A DNA stretch of 64,000 bases. Source: Sphagnum compactum. Lineage: Eukaryota. Position numbers and translations under genes: made by a program. This document shows positions 33,151 through 64,000 of the stretch, in pieces. Below the pieces are notes generated by a model. It saw only the letters and a program-made list of their open reading frames with translations, made no database searches and was not told the origin of the DNA. Where the stretch lies: NCBI GenBank assembly GCA_965153455.1, contig OZ234493.1, positions 28,696,213-28,760,212 of the forward strand, read 5' to 3'. Every line of letters begins with the position of its first letter. The stretch's first letter is position 1.

Positions 33151-33913
33151 ATCAGGACCTTACTTGGATAAAACATTATAAGTGGAATCACAAACAACAA
33201 TGGGTGGCAGTGGTGAAGAAAAAACTAACAGATAGGACAAAATTTGAAGTTTTTGGGAATTTGTAAAAGGGACATCTTGCTTTAGGTTTTGAGAAATCAA
33301 GTAGAATAGCAAAATTGAAATCCAAACCCTAAAATGTCAATTTGTAAAAAATTATAGGAATAAACATTAGAGATGGATATGGGAATTTGAAGGTTTGATC
33401 AAAACCCTAAAACCCCAATATGCATAAAACTAAAAGCCCGAGATGAAGCTTCAAAGGATAAGGATGGTTTGTTCAAAACCCCAAATGCTCCAATAAAAAA
33501 TAACTACAAGAGTAAAGGAGATGGGTTTTGGAATGTCTTAGCTAAGAAAAAATAGTTTGTTTTTTGTTAGAATTTAAAGCCACTTTAGACGAGGGACCAA
33601 GGTCCAACAAAATGGAGCATTCCTATTGGATGAAAACCATAAATTAGACCCAAGGCCTTTAGATGAGGATCTGAAACCAAATGAAACCAAATTGAAGTGG
33701 TATCTACATGGCACCATTTTGGAGGGAAATTCAATTGGTCCAAACCAAAAATGGAGCTCAAAGGAAAGTTCATGGTTTAAAGAACCAAGATGTAAACTAG
33801 GGTCCAAGGTTGTTTCTTCCATTGTTTTTCATTACTTTTCACTATTTTTCATTGTTTTCATTGTTTTTCAAGGTTTTTTTTTCACTTGTTCTTGGAGTTG
33901 AAATTGTGCAAGA

Positions 33914-37590: not shown

Positions 37591-38753
37591 TTTTGTAATA
37601 GAAAGCACACAAAAAAACAGAAAAAACAAGAAACAAAGAAAAAAACATGAAAAAAAATGAAAAAAGAAAGAGAAAGAAAAACAAAGGACAACCTAATCCT
37701 CTCTATGTGAATCTCACTTTTTTACTAATTGGACCTTCAAATTGAACCCTATGCCTTTACACACTCTCATTGTACCTTACAAGAAAGTGTTTTTTTAATG
37801 TGAAGAAGGGTCCAATTTAAAGATTCAATTCGCTTCAAATTGGTCCCTCGTCTAAAGTGGCCCTTAGAAGTTAGCACCATGATCTAGAGACTGAAATGTG
37901 CACCTAACCCCCAAGTTTCAACTCTGAAGTTGAAATGTGCACCTAGCAAGCTAGCCCCCAAGTCTCACAAACAATTTGTAATCAAAATTCAAGAACTTAA
38001 CAACCAAAATGTGTAAAGTTTACTAGACCGTACCTGTAACCTAGTTCCTAGACTGAGAATGAAACTTTAAATTCTACTATTAGGTTTTCGAATCGTTGCA
38101 GCTGCACTCCGTAAAGGAAATCTCAAATCTTTGGTTGTTGAATTATGAGACTATTGCAACTTTTGCCATTTGGATGCTTGCAGCCAAGGTCATTACTCTA
38201 GCAAGGTGGTGTCTTGTACACGAGATCTTGTTTTCAGATCTTTTCAAATCTCCCCCAATTTGCCTCCAAGACTTAAGCAGTGAAGCAAAAGCTACAACTT
38301 CCAGTGCCTCTCAGAATCCATGAGGATGGACCGCCAAAAAAAGCCATGTTTCTTCAATTTCAAATCAAACATGGAATTCAATATCCAAATTTTACAATTA
38401 CTACAAACTAGTTGATTATACTAAACTACCGTCACCATGCAAGTGCTGGTGAATTTTAGGTGTGTTCATGTCGCCACATGCTGGCGATTTCTTAAGGTCA
38501 CTCATGTCATTGCTTGCTGGTGAATTGACAAATCCTGTACAAGGAATGGTGGCAAGAAGATCTATTGCAATGGCAGCCTAACTTGGTGAGATGGTGATGG
38601 GAGGGAGAGAGACAATGGCAACCTCAATATTTAGAATATACTAGAGATTTCGGCTAACTAGTCCAAATTTTGGCCTTATCTTTACAGTGGGGTTGTCACA
38701 AGCCCATTTGTGTGTGTGACATTTTGACGATTTTTTGCAAAAGAAAAGGCTGA

Positions 38754-39091
38754 CCAGCACCCACCAGTGCACCATGAAGGATGAATAATAAGTGGTCATA
38801 AAACAGTTTTCTGTTGGGTTCCAGTTCCCTAGCTAACCATGGTGGTTACCTCGGTTGCTATTTTTTTCAACCTACCTACTAACAACCCACGAGCGGGTTT
38901 TGAGTAGGTAGGTAGTAAAAACAGCCCTTACTTATGTATAAACCATCTACATACCTAGTAACTATCTATTTTCCTACCTATCTCCCTAAACCCTAAACCC
39001 TAACCCTAAACCAAGGTGAAAACAAATCATTAACTCAATTGAGGTTCATCCACAACTGAGTAATACTGGGCATCCAGTGGATGGTGTGCTG
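38754..39091. mobile_element. Non-autonomous MITE-like dispersed repeat, copy 2, with internal telomeric repeats
   Basis: Homologous to 5925-6305. Ends are ccagcacccaccagtg and cagtggatggtgtgctgg. CCCTAAA x~4 lies at 38984-39012. Confidence 0.75.
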
Positions 39092-40092
39092 GTTCACTGT
39101 GGCCCTAAGTAAGCAGCTAACTACCACATTTAGCTATGGAATAGGGGGAAAATGAAAAAGTGTTTTCTGGTCCACACACCATCCATCCATCCAGCATGAG
39201 ACCCAGTGCAGCATGCAGGATGGATGATGTGTGTCAAACAGGAAACACTTTTTCATTGGGCAGAATGTAGTTCATAAGGGTCTGCAATCAGTGACAGCCG
39301 GCATGGCCATCCCACTCGCTAAGTCCCTCAGACAAGGCTGTTACCAGAATTTGGTGCTGCAAGCAGCAGCAGCCGTGTGTGTGCATGCCTTATTTTTCCA
39401 TTTGGTTGCACCTCGAAAAACAACCGACTTGCACTCCCCTACATACAAACAAGTGTTGGGTGGTTCTTTGATTTTGTTGATAAGCTCTGGTCTCGAGCAG
39501 CAACAAATGGCACTGACCACCAACCATTCATTGCTACTCACTCCCTGAGCTCCCCAAACATGGGCGTAAATATTTAATCCGCTGGAAATTTTTGGGAAAG
39601 AACCTTGTACAAAGTCTGTATCCTGAGAGTTTTTGTCACGATTCCAGAAGCCATGGGAACACTCACTCCAGATATTAGCTAGTAATCAAAGAGACAGCTA
39701 TTGGAAAAATTGTCAGCAGTTTCCGGTTCAACCTGCCGTAAGCTTGTGATGGGTCATTTTGCCTGGCTCCTGTACAAGCTGGAATCAAAGCCTCAGGTAT
39801 TGAGGGATCTGCATAGAGAAGGTTATGACTTACAACCTCCTCTATCTGAACCAGTAGAGCCCCTAAGAACTACCCAGCGACACTACAAGGACACTAAAAA
39901 CTAGGTAACACTTTCGGTGAGGAAAGTGAAAGTCTGACAGATAATATTGAGGAAGCGACTTCAATGATGTCATCCATGGCCAGACAGTCATGTGCTACGA
40001 AACTACTCTCGTGTCAATATTCAGCTGCTAGGACGCAGATTAATAGAAGCAAAGTTTTGACATTGCCAAACATGTGAAATGAGTTTCTTGTA

Positions 40093-43000
40093 CTATCTCT
40101 TTCTACCACCACGCTCCTTGAACCCTAACGAGAGGACCTCTGCAGGCCCGATGTTGTAGTATGCAAGAGACAAGTTGTCCTTGAGAAATCCTGCACGACC
40201 GCTCAGTTTCTGCTTGTTGGCAGCCAGAGCTATTTCCGTTGCAATCCTTTCCTTCAGGCTTCCGATTGTCTCCGTCAAAGTTGTGATCATGAGCTCTAAA
40301 GTCTGGCCCCTCAAGTTGCCTTCCCCTTCCACAGCTGGTACTGCCACACTAATCCGCACAGCACCCTGCCCAGAATTCCCAAGAAAATCAGTACTTTGGG
40401 ACTTTCGCTGAAATGGAAAATTATCATAGTACCAACACAGATTTTCCAAATGAGTTACATGCCATCTCTATACTGGTCGACATACAACAGGTCAGCCAGA
40501 GAGTTTCAGACTCAGGATGCAGCTTGGATGGAGAATGAGCAGCTTATTAAGGGGGAGCAATGTCTGTTTTGGGGGAGGAAGCAACAGCATGACAGTGACC
40601 ATTAGCTGCACAGAGGTCTCGCTGCCACAGTGGGACTATCCATGTTTGCATCAAATCCATTCTGGCCTTCCAAGACAATGTAGTGGACTTCAAACTCAAC
40701 TTCAGAAAGCAGCACATGAAGGTGCACACAATGAAGTCATCAAACTGTACTAAATAGTCATCCTCTGATGGGAGACCCCCAGTGAACGCATTAACGAAGA
40801 AAATTGATCTCTTCACCTCCATTGAAGGGGAGACAAAGAAAGAGGGGGAGAAAGAGAACAAACTAATCAACAACCATTTCTCAGTAGATTCCAAGGTGTG
40901 GGATGTGGAGGTCAAGGACATAACCATCACAGGTCAATAAAGCACCACAGCAAACCACCAGCCTCAACAAAACAAGGACTAAGAACACATTCCACTTTTC
41001 TCAAGTGCCCATGACCAGTGCGGGAAAGAGGCACATACCGGATGCTGAGCAAGAAACTGGTCCTCTGGTATTAGAGGGAATTCATCCACCTTCTGGCGTT
41101 TGGGTTCTGGCTCCTCCGGAGGCGGCGGGGGAGCTTCCTCTGGGGGAGGGGGTGGAGGCATGGCAGACAGCTGAGGAGGTGGGGGTGGCAATGGCATTGC
41201 TGGAAGAAAAGGCCTCGGTGGTGGGGGCATCGGTGCATATTGAGCCATCGATCCACCTGGAGGTCCTAAGGGCTGTTGAACCACTGGAGGTGGCGGGGGC
41301 ATAGGAGCTGGAGGTCGTGCAATCAAAGGAGGTCCAGGAGGCAGAGTCTGGGGAGCTGGAGGTGGGCGCAACGGCGGTGGGGTGGTGAGGATTGCAGGCC
41401 TTGCAGGCGTGGGGGCCAATGGAGGCGTCGATGCTGCAACAGATTGTCCGGGCACATTCAGAGGGCGAGGGATGTTCAGGGCCAGGCCAGGAGGAGGAAG
41501 GGGAGGCCTGGCAGGCGTTGCGGCAAGCTTGGGAACAGGTGGTGCCACCGGGCCTGGAAGAGGCCGCCCGTCAATGGTCAGGTTCGCCTTTTCTCTGTGA
41601 ATTGCAGCAATTTGCTCTTCCAAGGTCATAGTTTGGGCCATGGCTTGGGTTGCGGTGCGGCTGATACTGCCCGTATGCCCATCCCAAATCACTTGCTTAG
41701 GGTCTTCCTTCTTCACCTCAATCTCAGCCTTCACCGCATTCGAAACCTCCTCCTCCGTGGTTCCAAAAATATCAGGCCGAGTACGAGCCAAACCCACAAT
41801 GTTGCGAGAAATCTCATCATCTGTCGCGAGTGTCGTCTCCCTCAGCTTAGCCATCATACGCTCCTTTTGCTCCTTGTACTTAGGGTCGATGAGAGAGATT
41901 CGCATGTGCTCTGCCATCTCGTTGACAGGGATGAGCTCGTTGGTGATGGGTGACACCACGAACTTCAGAGGGTCCTTCTCAGCCGCAAGCCGTTCTTCCG
42001 GTCGCTTCCAGCTCGTTACAATCCTCATCGGTGCCTCATCTTCATCGTCAGGTGGCGGCTGTGCATCCTCTGCACCTTTACTACCGTTGCTATCTGAGAT
42101 TGTCGTGGACTTCATTCCCTCCTCCACCAAATGCAACTCCTCTTCGTCCATCTCCATCTCAACTTCCTTACCCCCCTCAGTGATATCCTCCACGACTTCC
42201 TCCGCAGCTAGAGCCTTGCTTCTCCGCACCACTTCCTCGATTGTCATGGGCTGTGGGAGCTCGTCGTCCTCCTCCTCCGCAAACTCAATGGTTTCGACCA
42301 CCACAAAGTCATGCCAGTCGATAAGCGCCATCTGCAGGCGCTCCTGTTCAATTTCGTCCTCTGCTCTCTGTCTGGCTCTCTCCTGGGACCTCTCCCACTC
42401 CAACCGATGAAGGCAGCGTTCCAGAACAGCTGTCTTATTATCCACATCTTTCTTCAATTTCTCTACGAGCCCCTTGGGAGGCACGAGTACCTTGGAGTAG
42501 GCATCGGCCAGGGTGATGAAAAATGTGAACATGCTGTGTGTTGGCTTCAAGAAGTTGAACTGTGGATTGGCGTGCTCTCGACTCGTTAACCCCGTGAGAA
42601 AACTCTTCCCATTCTGCGCAACAAATTGAGCTGTAAGCTTGATGATATCATGTTCTAAGCTCGTGATTCCCTCCGGCAATCGCACCGTGTACTGATCCTG
42701 CTCCGGAGGCTCTATCACTTTGGCCGGAGCCTTGGTGGCAACTTCGACCGCGGCTGTATCTGCCCCCGCTTGCTTACCGGGGAGGGGAGTGCCGCTGTCG
42801 TCCAAGTTGGGAGCAGCAGCAGCAGGCGTAGCGCCTGCCGCTTGGTTAGGCGCCTGTGCGGGCGCAGCGAGCTGTGCCTTGAACTCGCTAACCCTATGCT
42901 GGTAGTAGGCATGATAAGGATCCGAGGAATTCAAGAAATTGAACTTCACATTGTTCTTTTCGTTAGCGAGAATGCGCTTCTCGAACTCAGGTCCATTGCG

Positions 43001-43240
43001 AGCCACGAACTGCGCTGTTTTATCAACGATACTACGAATGTCTGGAGGGGGATGGATCATGCCTATAGTCTTGGTTTGCGTAGCCACCGAAGGAACAGGT
43101 CGAGTCGCCGCTGCCGCCCCGGCGCCATTCTCCTGCTCTCCGTCCACCATGTCCTCCTCAACGACCTGCGATGGCGGTAGCGGCCCAAGACCATCCAGCA
43201 AAGGTGCTGGCAGAGCCAGCACCTCTCCGATCCCCGGCAT
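40093..43240 (-). CDS. SF3A1: Splicing factor 3A subunit 1 (SAP114/Prp21), copy A, 824 aa; exons 43240-41039 and 40365-40093
   Basis: Two SURP/SWAP domains (IVDKTAQFVARNGPEFE; IIKLTAQFVAQNGKSF), a Prp21 region (IDWHDFVVVETIEF), EHMRISLIDPKYKEQ, a Pro-rich tract and a C-terminal ubiquitin-like domain ending KERGGRKR. One phase-0 GT-AG intron. Confidence 0.95.
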
Positions 43241-43427
43241 TTCTTCTACGCCTCTCCAAAATTCTCTGCGAAAAAAGAATCTCGATCACGCCACACACAA
43301 TCGTAATGTCTCTCTCACAGGCGCATACGCACACAACCCCTCCACGACGCCTCGGGTCTGATGTCGCGACGAAGAACCAGGTCGCAAGTCGCGAAGAACA
43401 TCAGGACAGGACTTCTTCGCGAAGAAA

Positions 43428-43465
43428 CAAACCCCAAACCCTAGGGCTTCGGGAACCCTAACCCC
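43428..43465. promoter_or_regulatory. Telo-box-like motifs upstream of SF3A1 copy A (mirrored at ~49011-49048)
   Basis: aaaccctag and aaccctaaccc lie about 200 bp upstream of the ATG. Telo-boxes are typical of plant translation and RNA-processing genes. Confidence 0.5.
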
Positions 43466-43553
43466 TTGCGCTGGGAGGTGGGTGGTCGATCCGGGTATCA
43501 AGATGGGTATAAGTTGTAGCCCCATCCGTCCGAAATTGGGTCCCTTACACTGC

Positions 43554-46500
43554 CTTGTGTTTCGTTGTTCCCTTGTGTTTCACTGCTCATGTGTTCCTGC
43601 GTGTTTCACTATTCCTTGTGCTTCGTTGCTTTCATGTGTAGCTATTTTTACATGTGGCAGTGCTTTATGGGTTGGTGTTTTGGTATGCATCACTAGTCCC
43701 TAGTGTTTTGCTACTCCTTCTGTATGATTTGTTTTCTAATGTCATCTGACAAAATATATAAAGAAGGTACCTTTTTTCTATTGATTTCACATTAAAAATC
43801 ATGTGTGATTTGGGATGAGCTCGAAGAAACATAACCTAAAAATTGGAGCATAAGATAAAATAAAAGTATTTACCTCGTTATTTTTTGATTCGCTACCTTT
43901 CTACCTCATTACCTACCTTCCTACTTAAGTAAATAGGTGTGTAAGTAAGTTCTTAGGTACGTATGTATCTTAGGTAAATAGGTATTTTTATGCACATAAT
44001 TTTATTTACCTACCTATGTAAGTTTTTTTTTCTTTTTTTCTTTTTTCAAAATTTTGTCAATATGCCTAAGTGACAATTTTTTATTATGCCACATGTCACA
44101 GTTTAAATACATTTAAATTAAATAATCGTAAAGGATGGTTGAAATCAATATTTGAATAAAATTTGAATTTGAATAAAAAATTATTCCAAATACCATGTGC
44201 AAATTTTCCTTTTTTTCCAAGTGTCATCATGTAAAATGTTGAAATTGGACCATGTTGATTTTTTTCATTATATATTACATAAAATCATTTAGAAAAAAAT
44301 CCAAGTTTTGCCAAGTGGCAAAATCTTATTAAAGAATGTGTTTGAATCTATGGCCATGCATAATGAATGGCTTAGATTAATAATTCAATAAAAAAAAAAT
44401 CCCAAAAAATCATCATGTTGAAGGTATGTTGACAAATGGCAATTATTGATAAGGTTATTTAGTAGTTACAAAAAATGGCTAGTAATTGCAAATGTTATAT
44501 GTTAGTTAAAAGATGTTATTGTGTACATTGATTGTATACTTCATCCATGGGAAATGTGCTGACATCACACTAAGTCATCATTTGGAACTAAAAGTTTAAT
44601 GTGACTTCACTAATGCAATTAAAGGATTTTTTTTGTTGTAAAGTTGATTGCAATTGGTTTTCAATCACAAATTAATGTTTTTTTACTACTGCGGATGGGA
44701 GAAGTTGACACAATTGTGCCAATGAGAATCCCTTTCAAATCCAAAATTCAAGTTTGATTACCATTTGTAGGAGCCAAATATTTCCTCACTTTCCAAATGG
44801 GCAATTCTTGTTGTTAAGGTTACCCCAAGGGCGCATTTTTGAACAACATCTTCAAGTTGAATAAGATCACTAAATATGGTCGTTCTTTGCAAAAGGAGTT
44901 CAATTCTATCGAGTCCCTAACTAAAATGACCACCTTTCTTGAATAAGTAATATAATGTCATTTACTTGAAAGTTTCGACATAATTATCAACTATCATAAC
45001 ATACAAACAAGATCCCCTTTTCCCCAATTATTATAGCCAAATATTATGCACAATATCTGACAAGTTGTACATAGGCATGTCTATAACCTTTTTTAGAATA
45101 AAATTATGCAAAACAACATGCATCTACGTCAATTTCTTTTTTAGTTACGTTATAATATTTTGTGAAGATGTAACGAAAAAGGGATGAAATGAAGGATTCG
45201 GTAGAGTGTTTAGAACTTGACATGTTTCATAAACCTTCCCCATTGCCATACATGAAAATGCCAAAAACTAAGCCAATTCTCCAACTTTTGAAGTCCATAT
45301 TCATCAACAACCCTTGAGGAATACCACCAACAACGAATGGCCACATACTAAACATTAGCCTCTTCCAACGATGTGGCATTCTTGTATTTTTAACACAATG
45401 TTTTATGTCGTTCATGCAACTTTGGATTAATTTGTTGTATTGTGTGTCTATCCATGGATTGAGTCCAATGAAAGTAACAAATACACTATTTGTCAACCAT
45501 AGGTTCATTTGGGTCACTTAAATTGTACACAATGCACAAACCTTCCAATTCCCCTAAAGACTATCAGCCATCAAACCTTTGAAGTTTGGATGAGGAACAC
45601 CATTTTTTGCCATCGCCTTGTTTAATTTTTGCCACATCACACACTAAACATATGTGTTTTTTAATTACATGTCACAGACTACACTAATATCACTTTATAA
45701 TAGACCAAATTATACACATGGCAAACCAATATTGTACATCCATTGACATGTTTCACATGATCAAACATGATCCAACATCTTTGAAAGTCACCTTTAGGCT
45801 ACATCCTTGCACCAAATCAGATCCATTAACATTTCCTTGCATGGAGATTTTGAAAATGAACATTTTTTTGAAAATATTGTTAACTTCGAAAATAGTTGTC
45901 CTAAATGTAGTTGTAATTACCTCTATATTTGAAGCCAAAATGTAGGAAAGGTAGTTTTGGTTCCTTGAACAATGCTTTAGGGATGAAATTAAGTTTTTGT
46001 TGGGAAAATATAACTTTACAAATCTGTTCGTCACATGATTTAGTTTATCACCTTGAAGAAGTTCCATGAAGCCATCACCATCCTTGTTCAACAATTGCAT
46101 AGACAGAAATGTCTTGCTTGTGGCCAAAACAATTATAAAATTTGTTGTAAATGATGTCTACAAAACTTCTTCCTCGAGCAAGAGGTTGATTTGTGGGACA
46201 ACGTCTCCACACCTTTCATTAACCACTAAATGGTAATGCGTACTAAGATGAATCACCGTTCGAGTCAAATTGCACTACTTGTGGACAATGTAATACATGT
46301 GTGTGGCACATGTGTTAACACAAAAGGGAGGAGTGAAGCAAACTATGCATAATGGTAGAACAATACTAGGTGTTTGTTTACTGAAATGAAAGACAATGTC
46401 ACTAGTCCAAGCGATTTTATTGTTAGAACCATTTAATAAGAAGGAAATATTCACATTTGTCATTATAACATTACAAATGACCCAAACACTAAACCTTGTG

Positions 46501-48195
46501 GAAAACAAGATTGAAATCATTGTTTATGTTCATTATCTTCACCTTACCCCAAGCATGATTATCATATTTCATGTCCATTCCTTGCATCTTGCTAGAATGG
46601 CCTTTGGAATTTTCAATTAGAGGAAGTTAAAAAATGACATCAGACATTGAATTTGATTTGAACAAATGGAACCTTCTAAATCAACAATTTATCATAATCC
46701 AAAGAATGTAATTCAAAAGTGGTGTGAAGGGCTTAAGACATGGCCTGAAGGTGATCAACAACACTAAAAAAAATGAAGTACTAACAAATGCCAAAAAAGG
46801 AATGGATTGCAAAACTTCATGCAAATCCAAATGGACCAAAAGTGAGGATTTTGAAAGGTAGGAAGAATTAGGAGCACTTTGTCATCATTAAAGGAGTTAC
46901 ACAAGTCAATGAACGATGAATCATGATTCAGACAAGGCAACAAAAGTTAATTTTTAAAGACAAGTGGTTTTTGTTTGACTTCCACACCATATTCAACGTC
47001 ATTGGTCACATGAGCGATAGTTTATAACATGAACACAACATTCTACAAGGTTTTGGACATATTATCATTGATAATCCTAAATTTATCGGCATTAATCAAC
47101 TATTGTAAACTTTACGAATTGGAGAAGGGAACCTAATAAATAGATTTGGTGACATTGTCGTTATCATTGTATGCATCCTCTTTTGAAATGTGCACAGTCC
47201 CAGGCTCGAGGCCAAACATTCCACACAAAGTGAAAAATAAAACTCCATAAGCATCTAAAAAGATGGTGAGCTCAAGCTTTCCTTCTAAATGGAATGTTGG
47301 CATTTTGCACAAAGACTTGTAATTGAAGGCCGAGAAGAAAATATCAATGTAATTATTTGAAAAGACAAAAGGAGCAAAAATTACTTTCGAAACAAGCAAA
47401 TAAACAACACACCCCAAAGACCAATCATGTAAAAAAAGTTAACACAACACCTACTAATGAACTCACATCACCACAAACTACATCCTATTCCATTGTGCAT
47501 TATGCCCAACAATGGGTGGAAATGTCAAAATCCACTATATTAGAAATTGACTTTGGTCCAATGGTCATTGCTAGGAAATGGGTAGTGTGGCAACAATTCC
47601 ATTCACTAATTCACATTACAACCCATTCAATGGTTATTAGGCAATGGTTTTTTTTCCCCACTTTCAATTTTTTTCTTTGTTCATTTTGTCTAGTGGATCA
47701 ATTCATGAAAATGTGTTTAATGGTTCATTTTATTCATATTAATTTGGTGATTTTTTCCACCCACTTGTTTTTTATGGTTTCATTCATTCCATTCACTTGT
47801 GTTTGGTGGTTTCATCCACTTTGTTAGTCATTTTAATGATTTCGTCCATTGCACCCATTTATTTTTAGTGGTTTCATCCATCACATCATTCATCATGGTT
47901 TCACCCACATTTTGGTTTTTTTAATGGTCTTGTCCATTATGCTAGTTTGGTTTTTTTAGTGGTTTTGTCCACCATGTTAAATTTGGGTGGGTTATGTTTT
48001 TATGGTTCCAAGAGGAGTAGCGAAACACTAGGGAGTAGTGAAACACAGAGGAACACCGACCCATAAAAAAACATTGACACATGTAAAAATAACGACGCAT
48101 GAAAACAACAAAGCACAAGGGAACAGTGAAACATGCAGGAACACATGAACACTAAAATACAAGGGAACACAAGAGCAACGTAACACAAGGGAATA
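43554..48195 (-). mobile_element. Decayed Mutator-like (MULE) element: diverged ~170-bp inverted repeats (43554-43719 / 48012-48195) around transposase relics (~44700-47330)
   Basis: The left ...ccctagtgttttgctactcct pairs with the right aggagtagcgaaacactaggg.... Minus-strand fragments read HVKHVNGCTILVCHVY, NFKGLMADS, CYFHWTQSMDRHT (CxxH-like) and LENWLSFWHFHVWQWG. No TSD found. Confidence 0.6.
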
Positions 48196-49235
48196 ACAAA
48201 ACAAAAGGATCACAAGAGCAATGAAGCACAAGGGAACAACAAAGCACAAAAAAACATCAAAACATGGAAGAGTGGCAAAGCACGAAAGATAGAGAAGTTA
48301 GGGCCAAGCTGCAACTTCACCCCCTTTTTAAGAAGAGCGAGAATCTTCTTCATGAAACTCTTGCTGATTGAGTCGTTGAAGGAGTTGTTGAAGAGGCTAA
48401 TGTCGCCCAAACTAAAACCTAAACCTAACTAAACACTAAACACCTTGAAAACTGGTGCCCTCATGTTTTAATACCTTGAAAACTTATCACCTTAAATGTC
48501 CAACTGATACCCTTTGAGGTTTTCAAAAAGTCGACTCTCACTTGGACGAAAACAAACAAACATGTCTTAAAAAAGGTTATCACCTTTTGTGAAAATCTCC
48601 GATTCTCATTTCAAAAATCAAACTGAAAAACCTTAAAGGTTTTCATAAAATATGTGAAGAACTATCGTACACTGGTTTTGATCAACGACATAGTAATGAA
48701 CCACACATCATTGGAAAAACTGTCATTTAGGGTTAGCTTGCAAAAACAACGAATGTGCCCCAGGTTTGTCATTGGGCCAAGTAGGGCAATGCCGAGCAAG
48801 TTCTTTGTAAGTCTCCCTAACATCAGGCATCAGATTGTTAGCAGCTGGCTAGTACCGATCTGCAAAAATTGCGTGGAAAATTAGAAAACAATCTCCTACG
48901 CTAACGGGGAATTTTTGAAAGCTCAGGGTAAGGGACCCAATTTCGGACGGACGGGGCTAAAACTTATACCCAACTTGATACCCGGATGGACCACCCATCT
49001 CCCAGCGCAAGGGGTTAGGGTTCGCGAAGCCCTAGGGTTTGGGGTTTGTTTCTTCGCGAAGAAGTCCTGTCCTGATGTTCTTCGCGACTTGCGACCTGGT
49101 TCTTCGTCGCGACATCAGACCCGAGGCGTCGTGGAGGGGTTGTGTGCGTATGCGCCTGTGAGAGAGACATTACGATTGTGTGTGGCGTGATCGAGATTCT
49201 TTTTTCGCAGAGAATTTTGGAGAGGCGTAGAAGAA

Positions 49236-52200
49236 ATGCCGGGGATCGGAGAGGTGCTGGCTCTGCCAGCACCTTTGCTGGATGGTCTTGGGCCGCTACC
49301 GCCATCGCAGGTCGTTGAGGAGGACATGGTGGACGGAGAGCAGGAGAATGGCGCCGGGGCGGCAGCGGCGACTCGACCTGTTCCTTCGGTGGCTACGCAA
49401 ACCAAGACTATAGGCATGATCCATCCCCCTCCAGACATTCGTAGTATCGTTGATAAAACAGCGCAGTTCGTGGCTCGCAATGGACCTGAGTTCGAGAAGC
49501 GCATTCTCGCTAACGAAAAGAACAATGTGAAGTTCAATTTCTTGAATTCCTCGGATCCTTATCATGCCTACTACCAGCATAGGGTTAGCGAGTTCAAGGC
49601 ACAGCTCGCTGCGCCCGCACAGGCGCCTAACCAAGCGGCAGGCGCTACGCCTGCTGCTGCTGCTCCCAACTTGGACGACAGCGGCACTCCCCTCCCCGGT
49701 AAGCAAGCGGGGGCAGATACAGCCGCGGTCGAAGTTGCCACCAAGGCTCCGGCCAAAGTGATAGAGCCTCCGGAGCAGGATCAGTACACGGTGCGATTGC
49801 CGGAGGGAATCACGAGCTTAGAACATGATATCATCAAGCTTACAGCTCAATTTGTTGCGCAGAATGGGAAGAGTTTTCTCACGGGGTTAACGAGTCGAGA
49901 GCACGCCAATCCACAGTTCAACTTCTTGAAGCCAACACACAGCATGTTCACATTTTTCATCACCCTGGCCGATGCCTACTCCAAGGTACTCGTGCCTCCC
50001 AAGGGGCTCGTAGAGAAATTGAAGAAAGATGTGGATAATAAGACAGCTGTTCTGGAACGCTGCCTTCATCGGTTGGAGTGGGAGAGGTCCCAGGAGAGAG
50101 CCAGACAGAGAGCAGAGGACGAAATTGAACAGGAGCGCCTGCAGATGGCGCTTATCGACTGGCATGACTTTGTGGTGGTCGAAACCATTGAGTTTGCGGA
50201 GGAGGAGGACGACGAGCTCCCACAGCCCATGACAATCGAGGAAGTGGTGCGGAGAAGCAAGGCTCTAGCTGCGGAGGAAGTCGTGGAGGATATCACTGAG
50301 GGGGGTAAGGAAGTTGAGATGGAGATGGACGAAGAGGAGTTGCATTTGGTGGAGGAGGGAATGAAGTCCACGACAATCTCAGATAGCAACGGTAGTAAAG
50401 GTGCAGAGGATGCACAGCCGCCACCTGACGATGAAGATGAGGCACCGATGAGGATTGTAACGAGCTGGAAGCGACCGGAAGAACGGCTTGCGGCTGAGAA
50501 GGACCCTCTGAAGTTCGTGGTGTCACCCATCACCAACGAGCTCATCCCTGTCAACGAGATGGCAGAGCACATGCGAATCTCTCTCATCGACCCTAAGTAC
50601 AAGGAGCAAAAGGAGCGTATGATGGCTAAGCTGAGGGAGACGACACTCGCAACAGATGATGAGATTTCTCGCAACATTGTGGGTTTGGCTCGAACTCGGC
50701 CTGATATTTTTGGAACCACGGAGGAGGAGGTTTCGAATGCAGTGAAGGCTGAGATTGAGGTGAAGAAGGAAGACCCTAAGCAAGTGATTTGGGATGGGCA
50801 TACGGGCAGTATCAGCCGCACCGCAACCCAAGCCATGGCCCAAACTATGACCTTGGAAGAGCAAATTGCTGCAATTCACAGAGAAAAGGCGAACCTGACC
50901 ATTGACGGGCGACCTCTTCCAGGCCCGGTGGCACCACCTGTTCCCAAGCTTGCCGCAACGCCTGCCAGGCCTCCCCTTCCTCCTCCTGGCCTGGCCCTGA
51001 ACATCCCTCGCCCTCTGCATGTGCCCGGACAATCTGTTGCAGCATCTACGCCTCCATTGGCCCCCACGCCTGCAAGGCCTGCAATCCTCACCACCCCACC
51101 GCCGTTGCGCCCACCTCCAGCTCCCCAGACTCTGCCTCCTGGACCTCCTTTGATTGCACGACCTCCAGCTCCTATGCCCCCGCCACCTCCAGTGGTTCAA
51201 CAGCCCTTAGGACCTCCAGGTGGATCGATGGCTCAATATGCACCGATGCCCCCACCACCGAGGCCTTTTCTTCCAGCAATGCCATTGCCACCCCCACCTC
51301 CTCAGCTGTCTGCCATGCCTCCACCCCCTCCCCCAGAGGAAGCTCCCCCGCCGCCTCCGGAGGAGCCAGAACCCAAACGCCAGAAGGTGGATGAATTCCC
51401 TCTAATACCAGAGGACCAGTTTCTTGCTCAGCATCCGGTATGTGCCTCTTTCCCGCACTGGTCATGGGCACTTGAGAAAAGTGTAATGTGTTCTCAGTCC
51501 TTCTTGTTTTGTTGAGGCCGGTGGTTTGCTGTGGTGCTTTATTGACCTGTGTTGGTTATGTCCTTGACCTCCACATCCCACCCCTTGGAATCTACTGAGA
51601 AATGGTTGTTGATTAGTTTGTTCTCTTTCTCTCTTTTATTCTCCTCCTCCCCCTCTTTCTTCATCTCCCCTTCAATGGAGGTGAAGAGATCAATTTTCTT
51701 CGTTAATGCATTGACTGGGGGTCTCCCATCAGAGGACGACTTTTTAGTACAGTTTGATGACTTCATTGTGTGGGCCTTCATGTGCCGCTTTCTGAAGTTG
51801 AGTTTGAAGTCCACCGCATTGTCTTGGAAGGCCAGAATGGATTTGATGCAAACATGGATAGTCCCACTATGGCAGCGAGACCTCTGTGCAGCTAATGGTC
51901 ACTGTCATGCTGTTGCTTCCTCCCCCAAAACAGACATTGCTCCCCCTTAAGCTGCTCATTCTCCATCCCAGTTGCATCCTGAGTCTGAAACCCTCTGGCT
52001 GACCTGTTGTATGTCGACCAGTATAGAGATGGCATGTAACTCATTTGGAAAATCTGTGTTGGTACTATGATAATTTTCCATTTCAGCGAAAGTCCCAAAG
52101 TACTGATTTTCTTGGGAATTCTGGGCAGGGTGCTGTGCGGATTAGTGTGGCAGTACCAGCTGTGGAAGGGGAAGGCAACTTGAGGGGCCAGACTTTAGAG

Positions 52201-52401
52201 CTCATGATCACAACTTTGACGGAGACAATCGGAAGCCTGAAGGAAAGGATTGCAACGGAAATAGCTCTGGCTGCCAACAAGCAGAAACTGAGCGGTCGTG
52301 CAGGATTTCTCAAGGACAACTTGTCTCTTGCATACTACAACATCGGGCCTGCAGAGGTCCTCTCGTTAGGGTTCAAGGAGCGTGGTGGTAGAAAGAGATA
52401 G
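49236..52401 (+). CDS. SF3A1: Splicing factor 3A subunit 1 (SAP114/Prp21), copy B, 824 aa; exons 49236-51437 and 52129-52401
   Basis: Same domains as copy A. Donor CCG|gtatgt, acceptor gggcag|GGT. One visible amino-acid difference (PRPLH vs PRPLN). Confidence 0.95.
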
Positions 52402-53897
52402 TACAAGAAACTCATTTCACATGTTGGGCAATGTCAAAACTTTGCTTCTATTAGTCTGTGTCCTAGCAGCTGATAATTGATGCGAGAGTAGTTTCGTAGC
52501 ACATGACTGTCTGGCCATGGATGACATTATTGAAGTCGCTTCCTCAATATTATCTGTCAGACTTTCACTTTCCTCACCGAAAGTGTTACCTAGTTTTTAG
52601 TGTCCTTGTATGAACGACTGGTGACTACCAAGTCACTGGGTTGTCCTTGGGGGCTCTACTGGTTCAGATAGAGGAGGTTGTAAGTCATAACCCTCTCTAT
52701 GCAGATCCCTCAGTACCTGAGGCTTTGATTCCAGCTTGTACAGGAGCCAGGCAAAATGACCCATCACAAGGTTATGGCAGGTGGAACCGGAAACTGCTGA
52801 CAATTTTTCCAATAGCTGTCTCTTTGATTACTAGCTGATATCTGGAGTGAGCGTTCCCATGGCTTCTGGAATCGTGACAAAAACTCTCAGGACACAGACT
52901 TTGTACAAGGTTCTTTCCCAAAAATTTCCAGCGGATTAAATATTGACGCCCATGTTCGGGGAGCTCAGGAAGTGAGTAGCAATGAATGATTGGTGGTCAG
53001 TGCCATTTATTGCTGCTGGAGACCAGAGCCTATCAACAAAATCAAAGAACCACCCAACACTTGTTTGTATGTAGGGGAGTGCAAGTAGGTTGTTGTTGGA
53101 GGTGCAACCAAATGGAAAAAGTGTTCCTGTCGATCCATCATCCATCCCTCAGTTACACTGTGACTGTCAGTTCTCTGTGGTGTTGTTCTCTGGGTGTGTG
53201 TGCGTGTGTTGGGGTGTTGGGGGTGGAGGAGGCAACACTACCAGCTCTGATATAGTTGTGATCTTCGAAGACGAATGAAGATTTCCCCTAAATCTTTGGG
53301 GATCTCTCCTGTTTCCAAGGCCTGAGGAGTGAGGCAGGGTACCTCTTGCACCAACATGTCAGACTTGACACAAGAAAATCCCACCCACCTTTGGCATGAA
53401 GTTGACCAGGGTGAACCAGTTAGTAGGTAGCAAATGGAAGTAGGTAGGAGGTAGATAATATAAGGTAAGGGAAGTAATAAGTAGGTAGGGAATATTATTA
53501 TATATTAAGTAAGTGCTTATTATGTAGGTAGGTAAATGGGTAATGCGCTTGGTGTCTACTAGGTAGGTAGATACATGTGGATGGATGTTGTTGCATAGCT
53601 AAATCATTGTGGATAGCCACGGGACATACATGAATATGATGAAAAATGATGAAAAATTGTATCCTGTTCGTTCGCACATCATCCAGCCGGCATTCTGCAG
53701 TGTTTCACTTCTGCTTGGTAAAAGTTTCACAACCCGGATGGATGGTGTGTGGACAGGAGAACACCCTCTTTTATTGAATTATATTCCTATTCCGTGGCTA
53801 ACCATGGTGGTTAGCTATGTATGTCGGGTAACTTGGGTGGTTACCTACGGAGTTTGAGAGGGATGCTGGAGGGTTTATCGAATAGGTTAGCAACCAA

Positions 53898-56635: not shown

Positions 56636-57175
56636 ATAGCCAAAGTGGCGATGATCCACAGCTCGATTTAGCCAAATTTGGCTACAAGCAAAATATGAAA
56701 GTGAAAATATATGAAAAAAATAAAAATCCTTCTATATTCTTGGCTACCCTACTTGAACCATGTACAGAAATCTGGCGATTTTTTTCCCTTAAATTTTGGT
56801 CAAATTATGTCTATTGAAAATCTCAAAAAGCACATGTTTTTAGCACTTTTTATTTTTTATTATGGCATTTTGGCTACATATAGCCAGCCAAAAAAAAGGC
56901 AGAGAGCCTTTTTTTTTTCGCTTGCTTTATACTATAGCCTAGAAAGCTATATTAAAATATAAAAGTGTGAAAATCAAGTGCGTTTTGAGATTTTAAATAG
57001 CCATAATTTCACCAAAAGTTAAGAAAAAAATCGCCAGATTTCTGTACTTTATTCAAGAAGGGTAGCCAAGAATATAGAATTTTTTATTTTATTTATTTTT
57101 ATATTTTCACTTTCATATTTTTCTTGTAGCCAAATTTGGATAAATCTTCCTGTGGATTTCGCCAGTCTGGCTACA
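56636..57175. mobile_element. MITE-like element with ~155-bp inverted arms just upstream of the RME-8-like gene
   Basis: tagccaaagtggcga...ccaaatttggctacaag...tacagaaatctggcgattttttt (56636-56790) is mirrored at 57020-57175. Related fragments occur at ~7930-8060 and ~15445-15610. Confidence 0.8.
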
Positions 57176-58140
57176 TCGCAACAAAACTGACGAAAAAAAC
57201 ACTGCGGGTCCCCTCTATCTTCGTCTTCTTCGTCGCCGTCGTCGTCGTCGTCGTCGTCCCGTCCTCTCCGCGACCGCGTAAACCGCGTTTTACCGCTTCC
57301 GCATTTGGACGCTTCCTTGCCCGGCTCACCCAAGTTCTCGTCCCGCACTCTCCCTCTGTGTGTGTGTGTGTGTGTGTGTCTCTCTCTCTCTCTCAGAGAC
57401 AGGATTCGGTAAGATCCAACTTTCATGCCTTGATCACTCGAGATCCAACAACTACAAGAAAAAAGAAGGGAAAAAGGGACTATTAGTTCTAGATGCATGC
57501 AGTGGCTGGATTTCCATGGCAGATCTAGAAGAGTGCCTGCCTCCAATCAATTTGTAGACGCTGCTGCGGCTTGCTTGGTTTTGTGATTGCAATTTTTCAT
57601 TTCTGCACATGCTCAATGTGAGATTAATCTCACGTATTTTTCAAAAAAAAATCTGGGTTTGATTTTGTTTTGGGGGGGATACTCTTCAGGAATGGTTCTG
57701 TTTTTTTGGCAAGCACCTTCGACTCCGATTTTCAAAAAATTTATGATGAGTTGTAAGCTTTCTTCGACTTCTGTGGGTTTGGCTTCCAACTCTCGTGACT
57801 AGACACAAGCTGGGGTCGAGTACGTTGGGGGAAACTTCAATATTGTGTACAAGCTGCTGGTTGATGAGTTCTTTGTTTTACTATGCTTTTGGGGGAGGAG
57901 GCCTTGCATTTGATTATTGCGAAGGATCCAATCATGGGTAGCTTGGAAGGCGAGGAGTAATTGCGGAAAATGGAAGTTCTGGATGCTGCTCTAGTGAGGT
58001 TGCAGTGAATGGGGTGGTGGGTGTTCTACTATTGCTGGCATTTTTTGTTTTCTGGGAAGCTCTGGTAGAGAGTACTAGAACTCTAGTAGATCCAGGAGCA
58101 GTTGAGGAGTTGCTGTTGTGTGGAGGCGGAGGACATCATC

Positions 58141-61100
58141 ATGGATTACCAGGTATTTCTGGTGCGGCAAGGAGGAGGAGGAGGTCGTTCCTCATCGCGA
58201 GCTGGGATGCGTCTTCTTCTTCTGCGAGTGCTTGAACATGGAATCTCGGTGCTACCATTGTCGACGAATACCAATTCTTCTTCGGCGGTGCAGCTGCAGG
58301 AGGAGTACAGCTTCGAGCATATTGCCAAAGTGACGGCCTCCCAGGACGATCCTACAGAACTGTGTTTGGAAGTTCTTGACATGACCGGGGGCAGCTCCAG
58401 ACAACAAGGTGGTGGTCTTCTGCGCAGCAGCAGCAGCAGCAGCTACGACACTCTTCGCTTCTTCTGCGATTCTAGATCTCACCTCCTCACCGTTCTCCTC
58501 AACAGAATCGACGATTTCAACGGCATTGGTGAGTTCTCACAGTTGCCATCCCACGCCCCCCGCCAGTCCCTCTTCAGAACGCTGCCTTGCTCTTATACTC
58601 TGGCACAAACAGCATTGCAAGAATTCAGGGAGAAGATTCAAAGCCCCAACTACCCAAGATGCAGAAGAATCTAAAAACCCTAGAAATTCGCATTAGATTC
58701 AACGCTCCAACTACCCAAGATGCAACGGAAGAATCTGAAAACCCTAGAAATTTGCATTAGATTCAAATTTCCAACTACCCAAGATGCAGCAGGAGAATCT
58801 GAAAACCCTGGAAATTTACATTAGACTCAAAGCTCCAACTATCCAAGATGCAGCAGAAGAATCTGAAAACGCTAGAAATTCACACCACCAGATTTGACAG
58901 ACTTGAGATCTCTAGGGGGAAGCTCTGGGTGGTGCTGGTGCTCCATTTGCAGCTCCTCCTTATACACCCAATGGAACTAGGGTTTAAGGCATTTTGATTG
59001 ATTCATAAGGCTGAAGCTGCTGCATTGTTGACAGAAATATTATGGTATTACTTGTGTGGCTAGAGTCTTGATGAGAGTCTTAAGAGCCATGGTTTAGGGT
59101 CAGCAAAGACTGACCTGATTGAGTAGATCCGAGAGCTGCACAAATGCTTTGGTACTTTCTCAATTGGAATTTTGCAACTAGACCTGCAGCTTTTGGGGTC
59201 TCAGATGGGTCCATCCACATTGTTGCCTGAAACCCTATTTCAATAGCTATAGGTGGGAGCTTCTGCTGGAGCTCTTAGAATGCAACAGATGGGTCGTCTT
59301 GCAGCATGAGGCAGGTGGATCAGAGATTGTTGTTTTTTGTTGTTTTCAAAAGTATCAGATATATGGTGAGTCTTGAGGTGACAATCAGAACATGAGCTGC
59401 TTACAATCTACTTTGGCCTTTTTGTGTTTGTGTTTGGGTGATTTGGACTACCAGGTACAGACTTTGTGCTGAAGAAACACAGCAACCAACGAGGAGGGTT
59501 GACAGATACAGTTCTTCGAGTTCGGAGCACCTCAATTATCAAGATGGTTAACACTGGCCACCGACAAGAGCGGCGCCGAGTAAGTAGAGACTAGGCTGCA
59601 TTTTGAAGAGAACAAATGTGTTGAGGGTGGGCTGCTGGATGGATGGATTTCTGATTTGGGTCCCAGTGCTTTGATGAATTTACACTAAGCAATCTGGAAA
59701 CTGTTATGTGTATATGTAATATACGGTTGTTATTTCTCATGTTATGAGGACAATTTCCATTACAGATGAAAGCAGCAAAGAGAGTAAATTTCATGGATAT
59801 CGTGAAGCTAGAAACCCTCACCGATGAGGAGCACATTGTGCTGGTGTATCTCAACTCCCGTGTCATGCGACTTTCACTGAAGGACTCACTTCCATTTTTA
59901 CTTGCTGTGCAACGAAACATGAAGGTGAGGGGAACTGTTTTGGCTGCCAGATATACATATATATGCCCTTAGACTACATGAAGAAGCAGGTTGTTGTTGT
60001 CTCTTGATGCAGCAGTGGATGAGTTTTGAGCAATCGCCACCCACCCTTTGGAAAGCAATTTGGAAAAGCTTCAAAGGAATCTCTTCATGTCACCAATAGC
60101 TGTGATTTGCTACTCAAATGGCACATGCATGTGATCCTTGTTGCTGCTGTAATCTGGCATTAAGCAGAGTTTGTTGTGTTGGGTTGCAGTCAAATTTGAA
60201 ATTGGATATTGAGATTGGGAGGATTACAAGTTCAATGATGGTTGAAAATGTTGCAGCCTACGTTAGAAAAACGGTAAGCCACCTGCTGATAAAAGACAGG
60301 GATTCAAATTTATATTCTCTAAAGAGTCACGGAGGAAGAAAAAGAAGAAGAAGAGGACATGCTATAATGTTTTCTGTTGTACGAAGAAAGTTGCATGGGT
60401 TTTGACAAGTGTAGAATCTGAATTGTTGAATTTTTCCTAAGTGCATTGAAAGGTGATTTCGATGTAGACCTACTTATGGTGGTTGTCTTCAGCTGCTCCT
60501 CCTGGGGTGTTGTTCTGCATCCTGCATACTGAGAGCTTGGTTGACTCTGGAATTAATGCAGAAAGAATCAGCAATCATCTGTGAATTTGAAGTCACAAAG
60601 CGGCAGGATTCAACCAAGCAAGAAAGGCATCGCAAAGTGTGTATGACAAAGGACTACTTTATTGAGATGTGGATTGATCATGTTGTAAGCATTCACAGGT
60701 TAGACCCGACCTTTTTCTTCAGCTCCAAGATGATGAATGTTTTTGCAGAATGCAGAATATTGTTGAGAATGGTACTCCTTAAGAACTTTGGAAGAAATGT
60801 CGGCTACTTGCAGCTTGAAGGACATACTAGGCATTATAGTGAGTGAGAAGGACATGAAGGAAGTGACGCTGGAGTTCCGGTCATGGAGAGCCACCCAATA
60901 CTTCCTTGACGATAGAGATGACTTTGTAGCCAGTGTGACAGACTTGATTGGTATAGGCAAGGGCACTGAGTTCAGCATTCGGCTGGAATCGTTCTTCTCC
61001 CACACGCTCCCGGAGAAGCCACATCCAGCATACCAGGTCACTTTTGTTTACTTGCTAAAAACTGTTTTCCTTTATTATCTTTAAAGGGTTATATGTGCTT

Positions 61101-64000
61101 CATATAACAATATAGTCCAGTTTGCAGATGAATACGATTCTGACTATGCAGATCACATTTTTTTGTGCAGCATGAAGTTGAGGCATATTTCTTAAACCGG
61201 TTCATTGGGACTTTTTATTCCATTCGAGACCCCACTGCATTACACATCGCTCTGAAGGAATATGCCTGCAATGTGCATGTACATCTGCTTGCCTCTTGCA
61301 CCTTTTCTTGAACGCAGGAGGACTAGATGTACTATTGGGTTTTTTCATGGAGGGGTTTATCTCTGCATCTCATTGGATTCGGGTTGTAATTAGTTTGGTT
61401 CTGGTGTGTCAACAACATTTTCATGGTTCTGGAGATGTTGGGGCACAGGTGGGAGATTCACAATGCAATGATTCCAAGGTTCTCCAAGCAGTTGCAGATA
61501 TTCTGAAAGAATGTCTAGGTGAGAGCTCTTCAACTAAAGAGTGAGGGTAGACTCTAGGATCTCAATTGACTTTCTCTTCTTTTCTTCCCCTTTTAAGGAG
61601 TTGGGAATTTGAAATGGTGAAAGAAGTAGCTAGGACACACACAATGTATGGACATTTCACACAAGAAATGTGTTTCTTATTGGCAGTTTCCTTGGGAACT
61701 CCCCTTTTCTTATCATGTTGTTCAAAGTCTTTTTGGATAGTCTTGAATACCACAGTTGCATTGCCAAACCAGGGAACCCTGGCCAGGATTTTGTCCGTGC
61801 CACCACTTGCTGCATTGTGCTACAAAGGCTTTTGGCGTCTCGACCCTGCTTTGAGGCTATCAGAACCATGCCTGATGTTGTTGCAGTGATTTTTCAGGTA
61901 ATAAAAAAAAAATAGTTAGTGTTCCCCACTCAGGAAATCCCAGTTCTGTCAAATTGAAATGTAGGATTCATTTGTGCCTGCAACAAACAGGCTGATGATT
62001 TGCCTCATAGGGTCTCTATGTCTATTCCATTGTGCATGCATGCACCCACTTATAGGAACATCTGTTGTGCTTAAGGTCCAGTTTTTGTGAAGCTGTTTTA
62101 TCATCAAGTTTGTATAGCCACTCTTGATGTGAACCCTAAACCCTATCATGAGATGTCCTGATTTATATATATCCTAGCAGACACCCATTGTGGTCATTGA
62201 GATTTTGACAGTGCCGGCCAGTATTGATTTGCAGTGCATCCGATCAGAAAACAATGTTCTTGTATATCTTGCAACAGTGGTTATCCGTGCAGCCATCAAG
62301 CTTGCAGCGGAACCTGGCACCACAGAAGGTGGCAGTCTTTTGAGGGTGAGATGATTTTTCTGAAGAGAAATGAATCTTTTTTCTATCTCATAATACCTAT
62401 GAGATTTGGAGTGGACACTAGGCTGACCAACTGTTGATAGAAACTCTCATGCAACTAGATCTAGCTCACTTTACAGTCAGTGTCCAGAAATTATCATTGT
62501 GACTACTATTGCTCTGTCCTTTTGTGAACTGTGGGTTTTGTTCGTGTTTGGTGGCTTATTGGGAAAAAGTTTCTTATCCTCAAGAAAAAAGTTGTGGGTG
62601 GGTTGTGGTGGTTGTGCAGCAAGAGTTTGCAAACAGGTTGATGGTGCTAAGTGCTGATAATCTGCAGCAACTAGTGGCTTGTCTTCACACTCATTCACTT
62701 GCCCGGAATAATTCTCTACAGGTCCTATTATATCCATTCATCTAAACTCTATATCTGCATTACGCTTTTGGCTTGCACGGTGACTTATATTTTGGTGCCT
62801 TGACTAAGATGTACTACTTCTTCTTCTGAACTTACCCTACCTTTTGTGGAACTATTCTTCAGGTTGTGGGTCTTTTGGATACATTAGCATTGGTGCTTAA
62901 TTCTCCATCAGTAGACAATGACACAGGACGGATGTGGTTGAAGGTACTCTGAATCTACTGGACCCGGAAATTTTGAACCTGCTGCATGAATAGAGCCTTG
63001 TACTGGACCCATGCATAAAATATTTGTTTTATGGTTTTACCCAGGCTTTTGAGGCATCGATGATGGCAGCAGCAGATATTTTCTGTGCAGTTTCTAGGTC
63101 TCCCAGTGCTGCTATTTTAAAAAGGTACCATCTATTATTCTCTACAAGCAATTTTTCTGATGAGTCCAATAAGAGTGGCTCTATCAGATCTCCCATTCAA
63201 ATCTACAATTTTTTTTTCCTGTCTGACCTTTTCTGTGGTCACAACTCACTTCAATATGAGCTGTGTAATTGCTTGGGAGATATGATGATTGGTCTCATCA
63301 GTGGAAACCACGATCATTAACCGAATATGTGTTATATACAGTAATTCAGAGCTGTTGAAGGCGCTCTTCACAAGGACATCACCACTTATCTCCAGCCATT
63401 TGCAAGTAAGTCTCTACACTGTATTTTTTTCTAGTAGGTACAGGAGAGAAGACAAATGAAACAAATGGCACCCACATGACAGAAGTTATCAGCCAGAGAA
63501 GAAATGAAAGAGAGGGTTTTAGGGCTTGGGGGTTAGGGGCTCAGGTGGGTATGTCCAATCACAGCTATTGGACTGATATAGATTTTGTCCAAGAGGAATA
63601 TGAGCATCACTGTTCTGTCGATAGATCAGAGAGAGTCAATACAGTACTGTCGCTCAAGAATGAAGAACTCCCAATTATGAACTCTCTCTTACTTGCTAAC
63701 AGAGGTTGTTGTGAAATAGGCCACCACTCCTTGTGCCAAAGTAAACATTCTTAAATTTCAGAGCGTTGAAGTTGATGACAATGTGTTAATGGGTAGTTCT
63801 TTTCTTCTGCTGTTATTGACACTGTTTGTGATTGATCAGAGGTTATTGACAGTTGTTTGTGTCTGAGCATTTAGGGTTTAGGGTTCTGAGCATGGTGGCC
63901 TTTTTTTGTGCTTTGCTTGAACTGCAGAAAGTCTGTCTAGGGCGCTGTGTGGTATTACTACACCTAAAGATGTCAATCTTTGCAAAACAGAGCCATGTCC
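58141..64000 (+). CDS. Divergent RME-8/DNAJC13 (GRV2/KAM2)-like protein, 5' part, truncated by the window edge. Exons approx. 58141-58528, 59455-59579, 59766-59924, 60190-60273, 60562-60698, 60784-61036, 61171-61278, 61449-61518, 61728-61897, 62235-62345, 62620-62721, 62863-62943, 63045-63124, 63342-63405, 63928->64000
   Basis: A phase-consistent GT-AG exon chain. Motifs are colinear with the RME-8 N-terminus as I recall it: TLRFFCDSRSHLLT, ICEFEVTKR...RKVCMTKDYFIE, TLEF...YFLDDRDDFVAS, QRLLASRPCF, LRQEFANR, GLLDTLALVLNSP, SPSAAILK, LLHLKMSIF. A probable 5'UTR exon ends at gattcg|gtaag (57408). Confidence 0.72.
58635..58885. repeat. ~63-bp minisatellite x4 in the first coding intron
   Basis: gattcaaa..ccaactacccaagatgca...agaatct.aaaaccctagaaatt..catta units. 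Confidence 0.92.

Follow-up and report, generated by a model that had tools for sequence, protein, structure and literature searches.

Two head-to-head SF3A1 genes in Sphagnum compactum: an inverted duplication, probably old and probably homogenised by gene conversion

Introduction

When two neighbouring genes are almost identical, did the duplication that produced them occur recently, or have two old copies been kept alike ever since? This question is raised by a 64,000-nucleotide stretch of the genome of the peat moss Sphagnum compactum (contig OZ234493.1 of assembly GCA_965153455.1, positions 28,696,213 to 28,760,212, hereafter the window), in which two genes for the splicing factor SF3A1, an essential subunit of the U2 small nuclear ribonucleoprotein (U2 snRNP), form the arms of a palindrome. 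A first-pass annotation, made from the letters of the window, had taken the structure for a young or actively homogenised duplication. The reading that we favour, with a probability of about 0.8, is that of an old inverted duplication whose copies stay alike through ongoing gene conversion between the arms, with its centre in the 5' untranslated region (UTR) and exon 1.

Architecture and expression of the SF3A1 pair

Self-BLAST of the window returned a single inverted match, between 39393-43552 and 53120-48924 (4,200 columns, 97.5% identity, 63 mismatches and 5 gap openings), with 5,371 bases between the arms, which bears out the inverted duplication proposed at 39393..53120 with its arms of about 4.2 kb, as well as the outward direction of both genes from the spacer. 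No second duplication of at least 700 bp at 85% identity or more was found within the 464 kb scanned (the window and 200 kb on either side, in a genome of 382 Mb). The upstream DNA common to both genes had been put at 308 bp, a figure that holds if counting goes past the first mismatch; the unbroken stretch measures 312 bp (right ATG at 49236, arm start at 48924), with 7 differences in the 101 bp at its inner end. A 66% match between short repeats outside the arms was considered as a sign of longer arms and rejected, the family being abundant (scoring 40 of 136 candidates gave 66 matches).

Each arm carries, as annotated, a complete two-exon open reading frame with intact splice sites (824 codons and a stop, intron ends GT...AG). 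The products match, above the Pfam cut-offs, PF01805 (SURP, in two stretches), PF12230 (PRP21_like_P) and PF00240 (a C-terminal ubiquitin-like domain), and their nearest named protein is a Sphagnum SF3A1 at 99% identity; by sequence, both genes belong to the SF3A1/PRP21 splicing factor family. Their coding sequences differ at 6 of 2,475 bases and at one residue (N595H), and all six differences fall within 50651-51047, the interval from which copy-specific single-nucleotide markers had been suggested. A protein search of the genome returned two SF3A1 matches and one weak 57-residue SURP match; neither DNA nor protein search of the 382 Mb found a copy beyond the pair, be it from whole-genome duplications or otherwise, these counts being lower bounds.

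Both copies are expressed. A stranded RNA run, X22, has a depth of 18-53 in exon bins versus 0.8 in a left-intron bin (40530-40884), and reads both types of 3' UTR (15/29, 14/28, 5/14, 5/15 and 5/16), i.e., at about 1:1 to 2:1. No SF3A1 splice joint appears in the 15 best-supported of 158 joints. The earlier suggestion that the copies could be regulated differently finds no support in this run, the single RNA run examined.

Is the palindrome authentic? The comparison of four out of 23 sequencing runs covered the left arm and the spacer together with 101 bases of the right arm. In run X3, from a study other than that of the best-matching run, one contig crosses each arm-spacer junction with 0 differences (43449-44100, and 48422-49024 with 367 further letters). 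Among its listed contigs the depth, which is no copy number, is 13.3-15.1 in the arms versus 5.6-10.9 in the spacer, a ratio of 1.6; the same ratio of contig depths, again no copy number, is 2.0 in X11, from another organism. The first-pass annotation had named half read depth over the arms as a sign of misassembly, and this is disfavoured, since arm contigs are deeper than spacer contigs and the X3 junctions are intact. A misassembly of two haplotypes, or polishing that falsely equalised the arms, would fit with the fact that no listed contig spans the whole stretch, the support coming from contigs and RNA rather than from spanning long reads, and with a Hi-C run (X21) whose depth of about 1-2 is too low to inform on copy number. 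Besides the contigs and depths just described, four annotated SF3A1 pairs in three other Sphagnum species and RNA from another plant, monomorphic across exon 1 yet with two 3' UTRs, speak against such an artefact, to which we give hardly any credence.

Age of the duplication

Adjacent SF3A1 genes are found in other peat mosses. Among the 15 members listed out of 60 in the protein cluster, for which gene orientation is not given, S. fallax has an adjacent pair (BDL97_08G065000 and 08G065200) that encodes a single identical protein. In S. jensenii there are two pairs with successive accession numbers (CAK9277400/1 and CAK9881234/5), and in S. troendelagicum an adjacent pair (CAK9234013/4). Five of 28 metagenome loci are close to the window genes (99-100% protein identity): L028, L029, L031 and L053 represent one lineage, and L030 lies on a 19,870-base contig listed for an S. 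fallax-type protein (P0123). The left flank of the palindrome is carried by L029 to 31531 (89% over 12 kb), the right flank by L030 and L053 (to 54699 and 56319), and the spacer by L031. The left spacer junction, J1 (43722/3), where a remnant ('a') meets a truncated repeat, is identical in the window, L030 and L031.

The three lineages differ by 9-10% at synonymous sites. For two reference Sphagnum species of different subgenera, the split is given as about 16 million years ago, with a range of 7-20 (PMC9946827), and the depth among our three lineages may be similar. The pair and its spacer junction are thus common to lineages 9-10% apart, while the arms of the window are 0.8% apart; of the two readings in the first-pass annotation, 'young' finds no support and 'actively homogenised' does. 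Our best reading of these sequences is that the inverted duplication predates the separation of at least three Sphagnum lineages. A single young duplication was rejected on the outgroup lineages together with the strata found along the arm, as described below.

A separate pair of SF3A1-like copies occurs in L042 (6110-7628 and 10001-12429), in the same orientation and about 4.4 kb apart, on a contig with 56% protein identity; it is evidently an independent tandem duplication.

Homogenisation of the arms

At synonymous sites the arms differ from each other at 5 of 594, versus 54-62 of about 593 between the arms and L028 or L030 (Fisher test of 5/594 against 58/593, p 2.5e-13). Could purifying selection alone hold the coding identity of an old duplication? 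SF3A1 is strongly conserved (lineages differ non-synonymously at 0-5 of about 1,875 sites), and the identity of exon 2, which has 0 derived changes, needs no conversion. However, synonymous sites change by 9-10% between lineages and the changes are present in both arms; for exon 1, shared derived synonymous changes refute selection alone, and for the locus as a whole we consider it extremely unlikely.

Changes derived in the window's lineage were polarised with L028 and L030, and counted as present in both arms or in one. The ratios are 27:5 in exon 1, 7:15 in the intron, 4:23 in the 3' flank, and 3:7 in the upstream DNA and 5' UTR, the sharing in exon 1 being distinct from that in the intron and 3' flank (p 5e-8). 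The differences between the arms are unevenly spread from the inside out: 7/101 in the inner edge, 0/1,626 in an identical tract (49025-50650), 6 in the rest of exon 1, 20/670 aligned bases in the intron, 0/273 in exon 2, and 32/700 in the 3' flank. Within the identical tract, 18 derived changes lie in both arms and 0 are private; it is probably a recent conversion tract, and the inner 101 bp would be an edge without recent conversion. In the exon-1 tree, the two window arms are joined with a support of 100/100. Paralogous arms are closer than orthologous arms, clearly so in exon 1 and the intron, and weakly in the 3' flank.

The annotated pairs of other species agree with this picture at the protein level. 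Species-specific residues occur in both copies (G149 in S. troendelagicum, S632 in one S. jensenii pair, and A138 in S. fallax), and V771 is confined to the second copy in three of the four pairs.

Has each lineage instead rebuilt its second copy, through loss and new inverted duplication or through wholesale overwriting, so that the arms are young in every species without steady conversion? This is unlikely. It would accord with the fact that no left/right difference of the window's 3' flank is clearly common to the differences between L029 and L053, and that J2, the right spacer junction upstream of the right gene, is derived in the window's lineage. A single event, however, leaves a single age, and the arms show at least three (27:5, 7:15 and 4:23), V771 marks the second copy across three species, and variants specific to an individual sit in both copies.

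A second alternative takes reverse-transcribed mRNA, and not the other arm, as the template of conversion. The exons are more alike than the intron, and none of the 30 shared derived sites upstream of the intron lies farther upstream than 43346 (left gene), which keeps them all within the transcribed region, as this alternative would have it. On the other hand the intron is retained, with 7 shared derived sites, and homogenisation is weakest in the transcribed 3' UTR, the opposite of the 3' bias expected of conversion templated by cDNA. We consider an mRNA template very unlikely.

Is homogenisation still going on? The plant sampled by X22 is fixed for letters that are foreign to both window copies and to their relatives at 41849 (46/46 reads) and 42851 (21/21); if one copy alone bore the letter, the chance of 46/46 would be at most 2e-9. 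At 43329, where both window copies are derived, X22 has the ancestral letter in 18/18 reads, and at four sites that separate the window copies it is monomorphic (right type in 38/38, then 0/50, 0/55 and 0/42). Hi-C DNA reads from the same study agree (2/2, 1/1 and 1/1), which argues against RNA editing. At 43346, 5 of 13 reads are ancestral, so the copies of this plant still differ there. A second individual thus carries its own variants in both copies, and continuing homogenisation is the best reading of these data.

Several points weigh against an old pair under continuing conversion. No contig of another lineage spans both genes, and their head-to-head orientation elsewhere is presumed on the grounds that the genes are adjacent, share the junction and have different flanks downstream, two in all; the metagenome contigs are built from short reads, and their arms may be collapsed or mis-joined; S. 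divinum is absent from the 15 of 60 cluster members listed. The comparison of runs rests on the best-supported rows (40/718 variants, 15/158 joints and 16/8,549 pieces), and X22, which shares only its species label with the best-matching runs, may come from a close relative. The 3' flank tree leaves the window arms in an unsettled position with L030 and not as a clade, and 3' flank differences between the arms (32/700) are not clearly fewer than those between the left arm and L029, a relative that carries the left flank (49/700, p 0.066), so that conversion there is old or rare. Finally, a bias towards GC among shared changes (23 vs 11) is not significant (p 0.058), and GC-biased conversion was set aside as a candidate on this account.

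A possible mechanism

In the proposed sequence of events, the SF3A1 inverted duplication would have formed before at least three Sphagnum lineages parted, both copies remaining active and being repeatedly homogenised by non-allelic gene conversion between the arms. Homologous recombination would mend a broken arm from the other one, located either on the same chromatid or on its sister, these presumably being the sole homologous templates in the haploid gametophyte. Conversion may be concentrated on the 5' UTR and exon 1 because purifying selection probably keeps the long exon 1 free of indels, and hence a good substrate, while the intron and 3' flank would gather indels and drop out of conversion. 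The spacer, being unprotected, would undergo insertions, deletions and probably an inversion.

Why have two copies been retained? The pair may have been kept for the dose of a U2 snRNP subunit, because the copies repair each other, or simply because the structure persists, dosage or persistence being as likely as repair. A wider idea, which we put forward tentatively and hold to be doubtful, is that an autosomal palindrome in haploid-dominant peat mosses serves as a standing repair template for an essential gene in a tissue without a homologous chromosome (as Y palindromes might for testis genes), that the structure has been selected through the Sphagnum radiation, and that conversion is fast enough for within-species variants to be fixed in both copies of a plant. 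If true, the locus would serve, at population scale, as a natural reporter of mitotic conversion between the arms, with its hotspot at the 5' end.

Spacer, junctions and upstream blocks

The 5.4-kb spacer had been labelled transposable-element (TE) DNA. It is indeed repeat-derived, and is a patchwork of decayed dispersed repeats, at least four of them, rather than one transposon (66-82% alike to their other copies; Table 1). The repeat truncated at J1 may be CACTA-like, as its other copies end in ...ACTAGTG. Different upstream neighbours had been proposed for the two genes beyond position -308, which is partly correct: a decayed homology of 170 bp continues there (43553-43718 matches 48013-48249, inverted, at about 82%), displaced on the right side by about 0.7 kb which the left gene is without. 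This additional upstream DNA, block a' + I, is found upstream of the gene in L028, L029, L030 and L031, and is largely absent from the left window gene; as block I is present in all four related contigs that have upstream sequence, the left gene most likely lost the 0.7 kb. The repeat interrupted at J2 (48008/9) continues in L031 and in another genomic copy (G000:C1:19.62 Mb), so J2 is derived in the window's lineage; a contig of X11 ceases to match the window at that very base.

In the window, J1 looks towards the left flank; in L030 it sits on one contig together with the right flank. In L028 and L029, block I is joined to a left-type 3' end. The possibility of a spacer inversion through arm-to-arm recombination, raised by the first-pass annotation, thereby gains one metagenome contig: the arrangement of L030 suggests a flip between lineages, a chimeric assembly being the other explanation. 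Two histories of the spacer fit the sequences. Either a' + I was present at both ancestral genes and two deletions came later, or a single staggered inversion took place, which would have created remnant 'a' and J2.

Two simpler views of the spacer were tried and rejected. As a single element with terminal inverted repeats (43553-43718 and 48013-48249) it fails, because the pair occurs only here, with one 38-bp match elsewhere, and both copies are internal parts of one repeat family. The inner arm boundary does not coincide with a natural transposon end either: J1 lies within the 1-kb repeat by 40 bp or more, a' begins in the interior of its repeat family, and J2 lies inside another repeat.

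The S. fallax-type contig L030 carries, upstream of the gene, an insertion of about 9 kb (414-9485) with decayed Rep/helicase-like frames. Its motifs read as Helitron-like, and it perhaps corresponds to the gene model whose number falls between those of the two S. fallax SF3A1 tags.

Table 1. Coordinates, within the window, of the palindrome, its genes and the repeats around them
Feature	Position	Strand	Remarks
Short hairpin repeat	39115..39257		Outside left arm; 66% alike copy at 53649-53816
Left arm	39393..43552	-	SF3A1 gene with 312 bp upstream and ~700 bp downstream
Left SF3A1 exon 2	40093..40365	-	Ubiquitin-like domain, stop
Left intron	40366..41038	-	673 bp, GT...AG
Left SF3A1 exon 1	41039..43240	-	734 codons; two SURP modules, PRP21-like domain, proline-rich region
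Remnant 'a'	43553..43722	-	Decayed inverted homologue of 48009-48249; abuts position -312 of left gene
~1-kb dispersed repeat	43723..44700		Truncated at 43723 (junction J1)
Decayed dispersed repeat(s)	44692..47447		67-79% alike to other copies
Truncated repeat	47475..48008		Interrupted at 48008 (junction J2)
Upstream block a' + I of right gene	48009..48923	+	Repeat-family part with internal 35-45 bp units (48009-48680) and 240 bp
Right arm	48924..53120	+	Mirror copy of left arm
Inner arm edge	48924..49024	+	101 bp; mirror 43452-43552
Identical tract	49025..50650	+	1,626 bp; mirror 41826-43451
Right SF3A1 exon 1	49236..51437	+	Mirror of left exon 1
Right intron	51438..52128	+	691 bp, GT...AG
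Right SF3A1 exon 2	52129..52401	+	Identical to left exon 2

Comparison with known systems

In the moss Physcomitrium patens, identical tandem pairs reportedly lie mostly on opposite strands. Gene conversion has been suggested for its identical tandemly arrayed genes from their high similarity (Lang et al. 2008, as cited in PMC3045890 and PMC3729371), and housekeeping subunits of multi-protein complexes are described as prominent among moss expansions (PMC3729371). The Sphagnum locus resembles that case as presented there, with an adjacent, near-identical pair in a moss (6/2,475 coding bases, 5.4 kb apart) and concerted evolution by conversion; it differs in that a suggestion in P. patens is here tested against outgroup lineages and a second individual. 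The suggestion becomes measurable through outgroups, dated strata along the arm and variants shared within a plant. In their clusters, Ceratodon and two Marchantia species each have a single SF3A1 listed.

The gene-bearing palindromes of mammalian X and Y chromosomes are described with arms of more than 10 kb, more than 99% alike, and testis-biased genes (bioRxiv 10.1101/800185; PMC8327919). As far as these accounts go, the SF3A1 palindrome shares with them inverted, gene-bearing arms around a spacer, an age greater than that of the carrier species, paralogous arms closer than orthologous ones, and an unstable spacer (with deletions and inversions, an inversion being only suggested in Sphagnum); it falls short of them in its 4.2-kb arms, its 97.5% identity, its uneven homogenisation and its housekeeping gene. 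Moreover, it appears to be autosomal: the Sphagnum sex chromosome is given as chromosome 20, of about 5 Mb (PMC9946827), whereas the S. fallax SF3A1 tags read chromosome 08 and the contig of the window measures 37 Mb. Palindrome-type concerted evolution would thus act on an apparent plant autosome, and on the whole SF3A1 complement found.

The inverted hsp70 gene pairs of Diptera are reportedly small and autosomal, with homogenised coding regions and diverged flanks, and belong to a stress-inducible multigene family. The Sphagnum palindrome is like them in being a small, apparently autosomal inverted pair with homogenised coding and diverged flanking sequence, and unlike them in that no SF3A1 gene beyond the pair was found in the genome.

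Among the top-ranked results of a literature search by titles and the beginnings of abstracts, with subscription literature mostly outside its reach, we found no paper that describes this locus or tests conversion in inverted pairs of Sphagnum. Two consequences follow for work on such genes: the age of moss duplicates cannot be read from a near-zero Ks, and SF3A1 will be misrepresented here by short reads and by single knock-outs.

Other features of the window and genome

On the minus strand of the window, 1946-3721 is a 591-residue open frame that reads, by eye, as the second exon of a cytosolic HSP70 (ending in EEVD), and a multi-exon gene, whose first frame is without a Pfam match, occupies 58090-64000 on the plus strand. 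Two self-complementary stretches of about 550-600 bp (15625-16206 and 56637-57173, 81%) are probably foldback elements or of the miniature inverted-repeat transposable element (MITE) type, the first having a partial copy at 33573-33809. An AT-rich tandem array of units of about 90 bp lies at 24978-25685, and a 54-bp tandem repeat (97% identity) at 27637-27968. A sharp-ended, high-copy repeat at 38753-39093, 70% alike to 5929-6301, has a contig-run depth in the thousands, with many loose ends at 38753 and 39093. Elsewhere in the genome, G000:C9:14415651-14416202 and 14451384-14451935, 36 kb apart in direct orientation, have equal score and span, and are perhaps a young local duplication.

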